Assembly: GCF_044324875.1 (NCBI RefSeq)
Contig: NZ_CP172185.1
Strand: one strand, 5' to 3'
DNA from: Escherichia coli
GTDB lineage: Bacteria > Pseudomonadota > Gammaproteobacteria > Enterobacterales > Enterobacteriaceae
DNA: 64,000 nucleotides
The notes under the pieces were generated by a model. It was not told where the DNA came from. It saw nothing but the letters and a program-made list of their open reading frames with translations, and searched no databases. The position numbers and the translations under genes are program-made. This document shows, piece by piece, positions 50,231 through 53,233 of the stretch (within the stretch, counting starts at the first letter, position 1; every line of letters begins with the position of its first letter).

Positions 50231-50344
50231 ATCACGCTCCTCTTATGCGTATTCCGCTCTATTCGATCACGGATTGGCATCGAAGTCCGATCAGCGATTC
50301 GCATCCATTCGATCAACCGGGAACTTAACTTTTTCTACCGCTTT

Positions 50345-51100
50345 TTAACGCGTTTTTTCGCTGCTTTCCACTACCGGGGGATTTTTCCTCAGTGACTCTC
50401 CCTGAAGGACCACTCGGTGTGAGTTATGTACCAGTCTGTCCAGGATGGCATCTGCTGTTGTTGGGTTCTCCATCAGACCATGCCATTTATCTACCGGGAA
50501 CTGGCTTACCACTATCGTGCTGCTTTGTCCGTAACGATCCTCTATGAGCTCCAGAAGGTCATTACACTGGGCGTTACTTAACTGTTCCAGCCCCAGATCG
50601 TCCAGGATTAGAACCTGTATTTTTTGCAACTGTTTCAGATATTTCAGCCAGCTGCCATCAACACGTCCCTGAGCCAGTTGTTCCAGTAATCGCCCGGTTC
50701 TACAGTACCGGACGCTGTGTTTCTGTCGACATGCCTGTTCGCCCAGCGCATTGGCTATCCAGCTCTTGCCACATCCTGTCGGACCGGTTATCAGCAGGTT
50801 TTTCCTGTGGGTTATGTAGTGGCCGTTCAGCAGTTCTCTCATCTGTTCAGCCCGCAGACCTCTTGAGGCCGGATAGCGCAGCCCTTCCGGTGTTGCCTGG
50901 TATTTCAGGCCGGCATTTTTTCTCAACCGTGCCACACGGCTGTTTTCCCTGCTCAGAAGCTCGTCATCAACCAGCAGCGTCAGCCTTTCCTCGAACGACA
51001 GTTCGTCGTAGGTCTGAGGCGTTTCCCGCTGCCGTATCAGGCTCCCGGCCATCGCCGGGAGTTTCAGTTGGGTCAGTTTGTTTAACAGGTTATCACTCAT
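50345..51100 (-). CDS. istB: IS21-family helper ATPase IstB
   Basis: Internal start MSDNLLNKL; Walker A LITGPTGCGKSWIANALG and Walker B VLILDDLG; track ORF has a 5' extension. Confidence 0.85.
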   Translation of the reverse strand: MSDNLLNKLTQLKLPAMAGSLIRQRETPQTYDELSFEERLTLLVDDELLSRENSRVARLRKNAGLKYQATPEGLRYPASRGLRAEQMRELLNGHYITHRKNLLITGPTGCGKSWIANALGEQACRQKHSVRYCRTGRLLEQLAQGRVDGSWLKYLKQLQKIQVLILDDLGLEQLSNAQCNDLLELIEDRYGQSSTIVVSQFPVDKWHGLMENPTTADAILDRLVHNSHRVVLQGESLRKNPPVVESSEKTR

Positions 51101-51116
51101 ACTGTTGTTCCTTCTG

Positions 51117-52682
51117 TCAGTGGTAGTAGCCCGGACCACGCAGGTTTTCATGCTCTGAAGCATATGCCGGATGTTGTTCGCCCTGGCGGGATAATGGAAG
51201 CTCCAGGTTCTCCCGATGGTGACGCAGCAGATTGTCGATAAAGCGTCTGTCAGGGGCGTTATAGTGCAGGGCAACGTAACAGGCCTTTTCCAGCCGTTCC
51301 GGGCCGTATTTTTTCTGAAGTGCCAGCAGCCCCAGAACTGCACGATAAGCCAGTTCCGGATGGGGTTTTGCCTTCAGCATGGATTCAACCACCCGGCCTG
51401 TGGACGGGCCCGTACGTTTTCCCTGCTCGATCAGGCGTTCCGGTGTCCATGTCCCGTGCTGCCGGTGGCGCTCTGGCATGTGAAGCGGATTGGTTGTGTG
51501 TTTATATTCATGTGTGCTGCGCGGATGTTGCGCCACACACTGCCCCTTGTGCCAGAGCTGTACCACCGACTGCCCCGCCTTCAGTGACAGACGCTGACCG
51601 ACCAGTTCGTGTGGAACGGAGTACCAGTGACGGGCATATTCAACGTGGTAGTCAGGGCCAACCTTCACAGCTTTGTATTCCGTGTATTCATAAGGTGCCA
51701 GAGGCAGCGGAGAGAGTGCTGGCGCATCCAGTATGCGGAAGCGTTCTGCACGGGTTTGATTGCCGTACCCCTTCATTGGCCGGTTATTCATGTCTGTCAG
51801 TAACTCCCTAAGGCGCGCATTCAGCGCCCTGAGCGTGTGGAAGGTTTCATTACGGATGCGGGCAAGAAGCCATCGTTCAACGATGAGGACGCCGTTTTCT
51901 GCTTTTGGTTTATCTTTAGGTTTGCGTGGTCGGGCCGGGATGATAACCGTGCCATAGTGCTCAGCCAGTGCCTGATAACTGTCGTTGATGACAGGCTCAT
52001 ATCGATCGGCCTTTTTCACTGCGCTTCTGAGGTTATCGGGGATGAGCAGCTTCGGTACGCCGCCCAGGAAGGTCAGGCAACGGCTGTGGGCATTTAACCA
52101 TGACATCATGTCCTGACCTTCGCACGCTTCAACGTAGGTATAGTTGGACGCCCCCATTACGGCCACGAAGATTGCCACGCGGCGTATCTCACCGGTGTCC
52201 GGATTAATAACAGGAACCGTAGGACCACAGAAGTCGATAAAAAGCTTTTCGCCGGCACGATGCTCCTGGCGCATGGAGAGACGTCGCGTTTTTTTCCACT
52301 CCCGGTAGCAACGGCAGAAGTGCGAGTATCCCATCGCTTTGTTACCCGCCTGTGCCTTGTATTCCATCCACAACAGTTGCCGCGTCACACCTGGTTTTCT
52401 CATTTCCGTATCGAAGTACAACATGTCAGGCATTACAAGCTCTGATGCAAAGGTGTCTTTGGGCGGAAAAATGAGTTTCTCCAGCGTGTCATGGGATATA
52501 TCAGCAGGTAATGGCCATGACAGAGAAGAGGCTTTGAAGCGGGCAAGAACCTCAAAAACGGTTGAGGCGCTGATGTGTAACGTCAGTCCGATACAACGGT
52601 TAGTCAGCTTCTTGTCGAACTTGAGCTGAAGGATCTTAAAACAGGTTTCCATAGTGCTCCTGGATTTTCTCTTTCTGGACAT
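51117..52682 (-). CDS. istA: IS21-family transposase IstA
   Basis: N-terminal HTH then DDE integrase core; likely ATG start at about 52682 (MSRKRK..., with GGAGA RBS) or 52652 (METCFK...); the track start at 52763 is a TTG. Confidence 0.8.
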   Translation of the reverse strand: MSRKRKSRSTMETCFKILQLKFDKKLTNRCIGLTLHISASTVFEVLARFKASSLSWPLPADISHDTLEKLIFPPKDTFASELVMPDMLYFDTEMRKPGVTRQLLWMEYKAQAGNKAMGYSHFCRCYREWKKTRRLSMRQEHRAGEKLFIDFCGPTVPVINPDTGEIRRVAIFVAVMGASNYTYVEACEGQDMMSWLNAHSRCLTFLGGVPKLLIPDNLRSAVKKADRYEPVINDSYQALAEHYGTVIIPARPRKPKDKPKAENGVLIVERWLLARIRNETFHTLRALNARLRELLTDMNNRPMKGYGNQTRAERFRILDAPALSPLPLAPYEYTEYKAVKVGPDYHVEYARHWYSVPHELVGQRLSLKAGQSVVQLWHKGQCVAQHPRSTHEYKHTTNPLHMPERHRQHGTWTPERLIEQGKRTGPSTGRVVESMLKAKPHPELAYRAVLGLLALQKKYGPERLEKACYVALHYNAPDRRFIDNLLRHHRENLELPLSRQGEQHPAYASEHENLRGPGYYH

Positions 52683-53233
52683 TGACGTCTCCACTGGTTT
52701 AAACACGGCAATGGAGACTGTGGTGAAAAGAGTTAATTCCCGGAGTGACTGGCAGGATGCCAATCAATGATCGGAAGCATGCCAAATCGTGATCGATTGT
52801 GATGCCAAACTGTGATCGGAGATGGATGCCAAATCATGATCGATTCGAATGCCAAACTGCGATCGATTCAGATGCCATTTTGCATCTTACTGGTGTGAAA
52901 TTTGACCTATTATATCTTCTGCCGCCCCCTCTGGCTGTATCAAATAAACCCGCAGCAGTCGCCGCGTATTACGGACGGACGCACCGTTCCCATGCTCACT
53001 CGTCACATTCCCCGTATCAGTTTCTCTTACCGTAAGAACGGCTCTGGCTGGCGATAAAACTAACCCGGTCGGGCATTCCCACAGTCTTTAGAGAAAATGT
53101 AATTTACCCCCTGAAACGCGGGCTGTTCCCCCGTCACCTGCGCGCGAAAAACTCACCGTTTTTTGTGCACGCACGAAATCGCCCTCCGGGCGCGCCAGTA
53201 CTGGGCCGGATGGGCAAAAAGTTACTCTAAAAA

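Follow-up and report, generated by a model that had tools for sequence, protein, structure and literature searches.

A widespread ISSso4-like insertion sequence of the IS21 family appears to have transposed once, and recently, into the 5' leader of ogr, the gene for an Ogr/Delta-like activator in a P4-type phage satellite of Escherichia coli, and with it this copy of the satellite has most likely begun to decay; we place the probability of this reading at roughly 0.85. The window analysed here, that is, the whole stretch of 64,000 nucleotides from contig NZ_CP172185.1, holds the insertion sequence at positions 50246-52884, the two copies of its target sequence on either side of it and the satellite around it. 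The insertion belongs to an ordinary, already known kind of event; the element is common, well known and highly active in enterobacteria.

Extent, copies and identity of the insertion sequence

The element is complete, measures 2,639 bp, lies on the minus strand and carries istA and istB. Many E. coli chromosomes and plasmids hold copies that match it at 100% over its entire length (query 1-2639), in settings that have nothing in common: one lies inside a dynamin-family gene, another in a phage terminase gene and another in a DEAD-box helicase gene. The element is absent from the present site in three other loci (L002, L003 and L013). These end-to-end matches in unrelated surroundings place both ends exactly where a preliminary description of this DNA, made from the sequence alone, had put them. 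Matches spanning at least 80% of its length came from 297 E. coli records and 232 plasmid records, and they differ in context and extend over several genera; such a scatter of near-identical copies is what mobility of an IS21-family element would leave.

The name ISSso4 follows RefSeq annotation and the 96% identity to Shigella sonnei copies; the element may be an isoform of ISSso4 or else a sister to it. ISSso4 is of the same length class and has the same istA-istB layout, and IstB proteins identical to that of the element (WP_001282653.1) are annotated as 'IS21-like element ISSso4 family helper ATPase', while the RefSeq label for IstA of the present variant is just 'IS21 family transposase'. 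Full-length copies on S. sonnei plasmids, in which both genes are annotated as ISSso4 family, are 96.1-96.3% identical to the element, a divergence of about 4%; the isoform threshold of ISfinder is about 95% nucleotide identity. Plasmid pCT (FN868832) has been reported as a carrier of ISSso4 (PMC6361801).

Both genes are full length and score above the curated NCBIfam cut-offs, which bears out the earlier view that they are intact. istA (52652..51117, minus strand) encodes a DDE transposase of 511 aa that matches NCBIfam transpos_IS21 with 284.7 bits (cut-off 160) and contains the Pfam domains rve and Mu-transpos_C_2; in an alignment with IS5376 IstA, its residues D140, D206 and E252 fall on the catalytic residues D124, D187 and E233 of the latter (PMC10122671), so that the DDE triad is conserved. 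istB (51100..50345, minus strand) follows directly on the same strand, with a gap of 16 nt after the istA stop codon, and encodes an AAA+ helper ATPase of 251 aa (Pfam IstB_IS21, E = 1e-60; NCBIfam IS21_help_AAA, 257.8 bits against a cut-off of 200) with conserved Walker A (GPTGCGKS, from residue 106) and Walker B (LILDDLG, at residue 164) motifs.

The termini read TGCGTATTCC... and ...CCATTTTGCA and form imperfect 5'-TG...CA-3' terminal inverted repeats, with multiple subterminal repeats as are typical of IS21-family elements. The left, istA-proximal end (52756..52884, minus strand) holds five copies of a repeat of about 18 nt, GATGCCAAAnnGTGATCG, and one terminal copy, GATGCCATTTTGCA (repeat families D1 and D2, inverted repeats I2 and I5-I10); these are the presumed binding sites of IstA. 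At the right, istB-distal end (50246..50339, minus strand; inverted repeats I1, I2 and I5-I10) the 18-nt repeat recurs twice in inverted form (50263-50281 and 50287-50305). The element agrees with IS21 and IS5376 in its two-gene operon, in the DDE type of its IstA, which bears N-terminal HTH domains and a beta-barrel, in its AAA+ IstB and CA-3' termini, and in having several direct repeats at either end and duplicating 5 bp of the target (PMC10122671). The similarity of its IstA to that of IS5376 is distant (E = 6e-14), and whereas IS21 and IS5376 are about 2 kb long, the present element reaches 2.64 kb with its 511-aa IstA and five or six left-end repeats.

Target-site duplication and uninterrupted copies of the satellite

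The element is flanked by two copies of TCTTA (50241..50245 and 52885..52889). In the uninterrupted satellites L002 (99% identity) and L003 (97%) the same region reads ...CACGCTCC-TCTTA-CTGGTGTG..., with TCTTA present once, and this confirms the 5-bp duplication that had been proposed from the flanking repeat. By blastn, L002 1-14846 corresponds to window 35400-50245 and L002 14842-25955 to window 52885-64000; the 5-bp overlap of these two alignments represents the target duplication, and the comparison with an uninterrupted homologue, which the preliminary description had called for, reveals no other rearrangement or deletion. A 5-bp match at fixed positions is expected by chance about once in 1,024. 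IS21-family elements produce target-site duplications of 4-8 bp, and direct repeats of 4-7 bp were found at all nine of the other copies of the element that we checked; those of IS5376 have been measured at 5 bp (PMC10122671).

Repeated insertion sequences are a classic cause of misassembly, and one may ask whether a copy was misplaced at the satellite locus during assembly. Both junctions are precise, the 5-bp sequence that is perfectly duplicated here occurs just once at the empty sites, and the flanking DNA on both sides runs collinearly with L002, while a misjoin would create no target duplication; we therefore give an assembly artefact hardly any credence. Equally improbable is that the element is an old, fixed part of this satellite lineage. 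Its mere presence speaks for such a history, but in close relatives with 97-100% identity the site is empty and TCTTA stands alone, which refutes it; L013, whose capsid gene is 100% identical, is also without the element at this site. Moreover, a search of 5,426 complete E. coli genomes and of 62 loci, IMG/VR relatives included, did not turn up the junction between the element and ogr. Together with the 100% identity of the element to copies elsewhere, the perfect duplication and the intact state of the neighbouring satellite genes (ogr, the Sid-like gene, the capsid gene, the second integrase and the primase differ from those of L002 by 0-5 residues), this indicates that the insertion is a single and recent event, in agreement with the earlier suggestion that it was relatively recent.

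The satellite that received the insertion

The host of the insertion is a P4-type phage satellite integrated at a tRNA-Arg gene (argW). It spans 15,354 bp between att-like repeats at 46746-46764 and 62080-62099, the element having enlarged it from about 12.7 to about 15.4 kb (+21%). As in P4, the integrase adjoins the tRNA gene, an immunity RNA region (C4, 73 bits; isrK, 50.6 bits) is accompanied by an Icd-like ORF, and a large Toprim primase (889 aa, matching phrog_1139), an Ogr/Delta-type activator (Ogr_Delta) and a cos-like block, which P2-family phages have as well, are present, together with a putative protein of the Sid/Psu family. The gene order differs from that of P4, and the satellite has one candidate Sid/Psu-family gene where P4 has sid and psu. 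It also differs from P4 in having a second tyrosine recombinase after the primase and a gpN-like major capsid gene after the Sid/Psu-family gene, P4 having no such capsid gene.

The genes downstream of the insertion had been described as an ogr/psu/cargo operon which the element cut off from upstream satellite sequence. The element does separate ogr from that sequence, but there is no such single operon, as a conserved ORF on the strand opposite to ogr (49764-49997) intervenes: the actual layout is ogr, then this ORF, then a Sid-like gene and the gpN-like capsid gene. The former of these two, which had been labelled psu, encodes 236 aa and is the single Sid/Psu-family candidate in the satellite. 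Profile comparison and the alignment of distant homologues, from which alone this link comes, weakly suggest that its product is a distant, Sid-like member of the Sid/Psu family. A profile of the protein family matches P4 Sid weakly (E = 0.045), and 5 of 14 homologues match a Psu-like PHROG; a structural model (pLDDT 93.7) has P4 Sid as its top PDB match (probability 0.97, TM-score 0.49) and P4 Psu as its fourth. The protein itself hit no family in PHROGs or Pfam and nothing in a single-sequence PDB search, and its single-sequence AlphaFold model was unusable (pLDDT 52.5). The next gene, previously taken as cargo, is by its sequence a homologue of the P2 gpN-like major capsid protein; in the literature searched we found no description of P4-like satellites encoding a major capsid protein. 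That this gene is itself a remnant of a P2 prophage was considered and set aside: its product nowhere exceeds 39% identity to phage capsid proteins, and distant satellite relatives keep the gene beside the Sid-like one.

It had also been expected that a sid-like gene would occupy the position of the insertion. Uninterrupted relatives hold there just a non-coding spacer of 214 bp between ogr and a cos-like region, and the Sid-like gene lies downstream of ogr. The cos-like non-coding block (53096..53266; core GGTGACGGGGGAACAGCCC, minus strand of 53120-53138) begins some 200 bp from the insertion on its upstream side. More than 1,100 E. coli genomes contain an unannotated stretch that matches it at about 80% identity, and in SE11 this homologue adjoins the portal gene of a P2-family prophage. 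The stretch also occurs in P88-like phages, and a distant satellite relative shows 79% conservation of the block; the homology is to P88-like (Xuanwuvirus) phages and not to P2 itself. An RNA gene was considered for the same block and set aside, no Rfam family being found for it at the gathering threshold, and we interpret the block as a putative cos site. An annotated ORF of 90 aa adjoining the insertion sequence overlaps it.

The ogr leader and its candidate promoter

ogr (50048..50230, minus strand) encodes a zinc-finger activator of 60 aa (Pfam Ogr_Delta, E = 2.3e-11); its coding sequence is intact and its product is identical to that of the uninterrupted copy in L002. The element lies in the same orientation as ogr, and its right end abuts the ogr Shine-Dalgarno sequence, AGGAG, which the duplicated TAAGA adjoins. 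Instead of the 10 bp or so to the ribosome-binding site that had been estimated earlier, we measured 4 nt to the Shine-Dalgarno sequence and 15 nt to the ATG (50230). These distances, and the position of the insertion downstream of a TATAAT box, place it in the ogr leader.

The promoter-proximal part of the native upstream region of ogr, now separated from the gene, extends over 52890..52950 (minus strand), and a terminator-like hairpin stands just upstream of it (52966..52951; terminator scan). A standard sigma-70 scan gave no promoter near the insertion, while a relaxed scan gave one candidate, CAGCCA-17-TATAAT, with its -10 box at 52914..52909, some 20 bp upstream of the insertion; its -10 hexamer is perfect but its -35 hexamer is poor. 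The promoter and leader are not conserved at the DNA level in a distant relative. The late-promoter signature of P2 and P4, TGT-N12-ACA, matched 16 times in the whole window, with 16.5 matches expected, and none of these lay upstream of ogr or of the Sid-like gene, which gives no evidence for a P2-type late promoter. Given a perfect TATAAT only about 20 bp upstream of the insertion, the element has probably severed a promoter from ogr, although the true ogr promoter could lie elsewhere.

Proposed course and consequences of the insertion

In accordance with the established biology of IS21, IstA would have bound the repeated sites in both ends of the element and IstB would have delivered the target DNA, in this case the 5' leader of ogr between the TATAAT -10 box and the Shine-Dalgarno sequence; staggered cuts 5 bp apart would account for the TCTTA duplication. 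As a result, ogr would now lie 2.64 kb from its native promoter and, as the last cistron, would depend wholly on read-through via the co-oriented istA and istB, and with such a transcript as its only source the regulated expression of ogr has probably been reduced or lost. The native promoter would now face into the element and may drive istAB. The satellite of about 15.4 kb may, in addition, exceed the packaging capacity of a small capsid. It has a gpN-like capsid gene of its own, which counts against a simple argument from packaging limits.

Read-through from istAB could, on the other hand, supply enough Ogr. The insertion would then have rewired the satellite and not inactivated it: ogr would be a third cistron transcribed from the native promoter or from a weak istA promoter, transposase and late activator would be co-regulated and the satellite would remain functional. 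The matching orientations of the element and ogr, the intact Shine-Dalgarno and coding sequences of ogr and the native TATAAT that now faces the left end of the element all agree with this, as does the terminator scan, which gave no minus-strand terminator-like site within the element from 52884 to 50246. IS21 itself has a weak promoter split across its two ends, but ends bound by IstA have been reported to occlude end promoters (PMC10122671), and the extra 2.6 kb consists of translated genes and such ends, which makes polarity and lower levels of ogr likely. Neither the standard nor the relaxed scan found an outward sigma-70-like promoter in the istB-distal end, and the 21% gain in size would still be a packaging problem. 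We thus regard a functional, rewired satellite as possible but rather unlikely, and loss or reduction of regulated ogr expression as the probable outcome.

A bolder form of co-regulation, to which we attach little probability, is that the ogr promoter drives istA-istB-ogr as one transcript, so that helper infection or induction would set off a burst of transposition while Ogr would still be made, and the element would ride in satellite particles to new hosts. If this were true, the phage satellite would be an inducible launcher and a vehicle for an insertion sequence.

Significance

In itself the insertion is of little weight, being one more case of a well-known insertion sequence, cleanly documented with its ends, its duplication and its empty sites, and the satellite is of more interest than the element it received. 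For annotators it carries a warning, since the label 'ogr/psu/cargo operon' is misleading here and the call of a 90-aa ORF overlaps the cos-like site. Its modest value is that of a natural knock-in, in which the coding sequence of a late activator has probably been parted from its promoter while the satellite is otherwise intact. Isogenic-like uninterrupted copies are present in other strains, ECCNB12-2 among them, and a comparison of the two forms could show whether mobilisation of the satellite depends on its own Ogr.

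Structure and arrival of the insertion element

The interval 50246-52884 is filled by two consecutive ORFs, both on the minus strand. The first, istA (52652..51117, 511 aa), encodes a protein scoring 284.7 bits against the NCBIfam model 'IS21 family transposase' (cut-off 160) with Pfam rve and Mu-transpos_C_2 domains, while the second, istB (51100..50345, 251 aa), scored 257.8 bits against 'IS21-like element helper ATPase IstB' (cut-off 200) and matched Pfam IstB_IS21 at E = 1e-60. The catalytic residues of IS5376 IstA are D124, D187 and E233 (PMC10122671); on alignment to the solved structure 8q4d, D140, D206 and E252 of the present IstA fall onto them, and IstB carries both Walker A (GPTGCGKS) and Walker B (LILDDLG) motifs. 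The element starts with 5'-TG and ends with CA-3'. Its istA-proximal end has five copies of the 18-nt repeat GATGCCAAAnnGTGATCG and a further, terminal one, and the opposite end has two inverted copies, the multi-site architecture typical of IS21-family ends. Thus, the core observation of the preliminary description, an IS21-family element with istA and istB, was correct and the element is real. Since RefSeq labels identical IstB proteins 'ISSso4 family', and full-length Shigella sonnei plasmid copies with both genes annotated as ISSso4 family are 96.1-96.3% identical to it, we refer to the element as ISSso4-like.

Many E. coli chromosomes and plasmids carry the full 2,639 bp, end to end, at 100% identity, and at least 80% of it was covered in one place in 297 E. 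coli and 232 plasmid records. The 64-kb window holds a single copy. Identical copies lie in unrelated contexts: in strain 3R the disrupted gene is of the dynamin family, and elsewhere the element splits genes for a terminase, a helicase and a DUF3560 protein. It is, then, an ordinary, already-known element at a new location. Direct repeats of 4-7 bp flank nine other copies; at these loci (L001 and L004-L011, all 100% identical) the target duplication varies, being 4, 5, 6 or 7 bp, and the repeats made by IS5376 in vitro are 5 bp long (PMC10122671). Poultry is the source of several strains and plasmids that carry these copies, suggesting that the element is currently active in this reservoir.

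The reconstructed empty site is contiguous in 52 complete genomes. Two uninterrupted copies of the same satellite, L002 (ECCNB12-2, 99%) and L003 (JP538, 97%), carry a single TCTTA, as CACGCTCC-TCTTA-CTGGTGTG, and L002 aligns with 35400-50245 and 52885-64000 with an overlap of 5 bp. These empty sites and the overlap establish that the element arrived by simple insertion, duplicating 5 bp and deleting nothing, as the termini and TCTTA repeat had been read before. Established IS21 biology explains such an arrival (PMC10122671, PMC11208146): an IstA tetramer would synapse both ends while IstB presents the target DNA, and strand transfer with a 5-bp stagger would give the duplication. The insertion appears recent on several counts, as first proposed: the IS/ogr junction was absent from the 5,426 complete E. 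coli genomes searched and from the 62 loci examined, the element is identical to copies elsewhere, the TCTTA duplication is perfect, and Ogr matches the protein of an uninterrupted relative exactly. Compared with this relative, there are 0-5 residue differences in the Sid-like, capsid, second integrase and primase proteins, which contain no stop codons.

Insertion point and expression of ogr

Read along the minus strand, the junction is ...GGAATACGCA|TAAGAGGAGCGTGAT-ATG, the element ending 15 nt before the start codon of the Ogr/Delta-like activator gene ogr (50048..50230, minus strand) and 4 nt before its AGGAG. Beyond the element, the native sequence ...TTGATACAGCCAGAGGGGGCGGCAGAAGA-TATAAT-AGGTCAAATTTCACACCAG|TAAGA holds a perfect -10 hexamer (TATAAT, 52914..52909, minus strand) with a weak -35 box, and a terminator-like hairpin (52966..52951) precedes this candidate promoter. 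We infer from these signals that the ogr promoter lies at the TATAAT region, and the most economical reading would place the element in the short ogr 5' leader, between promoter and Shine-Dalgarno. The candidate region shows no DNA-level conservation in a distant relative and contains no TGT-N12-ACA, the element found in P2/P4 late promoters.

Insertion would remove ogr from direct contact with its promoter, and we consider a substantial loss of regulated ogr expression somewhat better than an even chance (roughly 0.5-0.6). Alternatively, read-through might keep ogr functional: the element is co-oriented with ogr and a terminator scan found no terminator-like site on that strand, so transcripts from the native promoter or a weak istA promoter could still reach the gene. 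However, these would have to cross an extra 2.6 kb and the IstA-bound ends, and we regard sustained function by this route as the less likely outcome. Apart from any effect on expression, the element lengthens the satellite by 21% (from 12,710 to 15,354 bp), and cos packaging into a small capsid may be affected.

Organization of the host satellite

The satellite spans approximately 46746-62099, and the 3' end of tRNA-Arg, imperfectly repeated, marks its edges (62080-62099, with 46746-46764 at the distal boundary). On the far side of the distal repeat is a separate island (35400-46700; ipuA, an HTH regulator and the 2,637-aa autotransporter UpaE), so the argW site holds two tandem elements. The attachment-site integrase (60639-61943) adjoins tRNA-Arg, and the C4 antisense RNA (RF01695, 73 bits) and isrK RNA (RF01394, 50.6 bits) at 58951-59145, minus strand, within an Icd-like ORF (58726-59253), form a P1/P4-type immunity region. 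Directly downstream of the 889-aa Toprim primase lies a second tyrosine recombinase (54053-55057, minus strand, 334 aa; Int_N and Phage_integrase), present in the satellite relatives L065 and L066 and absent in L063 and L064. Dense direct and inverted GGTTACA(AC) repeats between this integrase and the cos-like block (53400-53900) resemble replication-origin iterons on which the primase could act. The remaining contents are a MazEF pair, ogr, a 77-aa opposite-strand ORF, a 236-aa protein and a 423-aa P2-family capsid homologue.

As a single sequence, the 236-aa protein had no match in PHROGs and PDB searches. An exhaustive search recovered homologues of about 240 aa at 22-41% identity, whose profile matched P4 Sid (E = 0.045) with the motif DW..AAGGV common to both, and 5 of 14 family members matched a Psu-like PHROG. 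The AlphaFold model (pLDDT 93.7) found P4 Sid as its best whole-PDB match (probability 0.97, full-length TM-score 0.49), P4 Psu ranking fourth. Each line is weak, but because profile, PHROG and model agree we assign the gene, earlier labelled 'psu', as a putative distant member of the Sid/Psu family. The 423-aa product, earlier called 'cargo', is by sequence comparison a homologue of the major capsid protein gpN (P2 gpN in 7jw1, E = 7e-56). It shares no more than 39% identity with any phage capsid protein and is extended at its N-terminus by about 110 aa.

The two genes form a pair (47618-49599, minus strand), the Sid-like gene followed directly by the capsid gene, which recurs in L063-L066, where the Sid-like proteins are only 22-34% identical. 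Distant relatives keep the order primase, optional integrase and MazEF, ogr, small opposite-strand ORF, Sid-like, capsid; therefore no sid gene is lacking where the element landed, and ogr, separated by the opposite-strand ORF, is not co-operonic with the Sid-like and capsid genes. The interpretive additions of the preliminary description (a missing sid, a late promoter, an ogr/psu/cargo operon) were thus mostly wrong. The intervening ORF (49764-49997, plus strand, 77 aa) has no family match, and distant relatives keep a 71-76-aa ORF in its place; as a candidate regulator, its product could act on the divergent Sid-like/capsid promoter. The 64-kb window contains seven copies of CGTAATAC (1.27 expected window-wide), every one within the 3.7-kb regulatory stretch 49650-53330: three between the divergent 77-aa ORF and Sid-like gene, two inside the ORF, one near cos and one that precedes the ogr -10 box by about 55 bp. 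The motif may be the operator of some regulator.

A conserved non-coding block (53096-53266) has counterparts of about 80% identity, unannotated, in over 1,100 E. coli genomes and also occurs in P88-like (Xuanwuvirus) phages. Within a P2-family prophage of SE11, the matching DNA directly follows the portal gene, the position that cos takes in P2. The core of the block, GGTGACGGGGGAACAGCCC, is unchanged in a distant satellite relative and resembles the P2 cohesive end, agreeing with it at 13/19 positions (within 6 mismatches). We regard the block as the probable cos site of the satellite, one that points to P88-like phages as possible helpers. In relatives, RefSeq places a 90-aa 'hypothetical protein' over the equivalent stretch (ORF 53088-53360, minus strand, here); this ORF is probably spurious.

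P4 has no capsid gene of its own, whereas this satellite encodes a gpN-like capsid protein. In the literature searched we found no description of P4-type satellites pairing a Sid-like protein, their own gpN-like capsid and a P88-type cos. The satellite itself is a more unusual feature of this neighbourhood than the element inserted in it.
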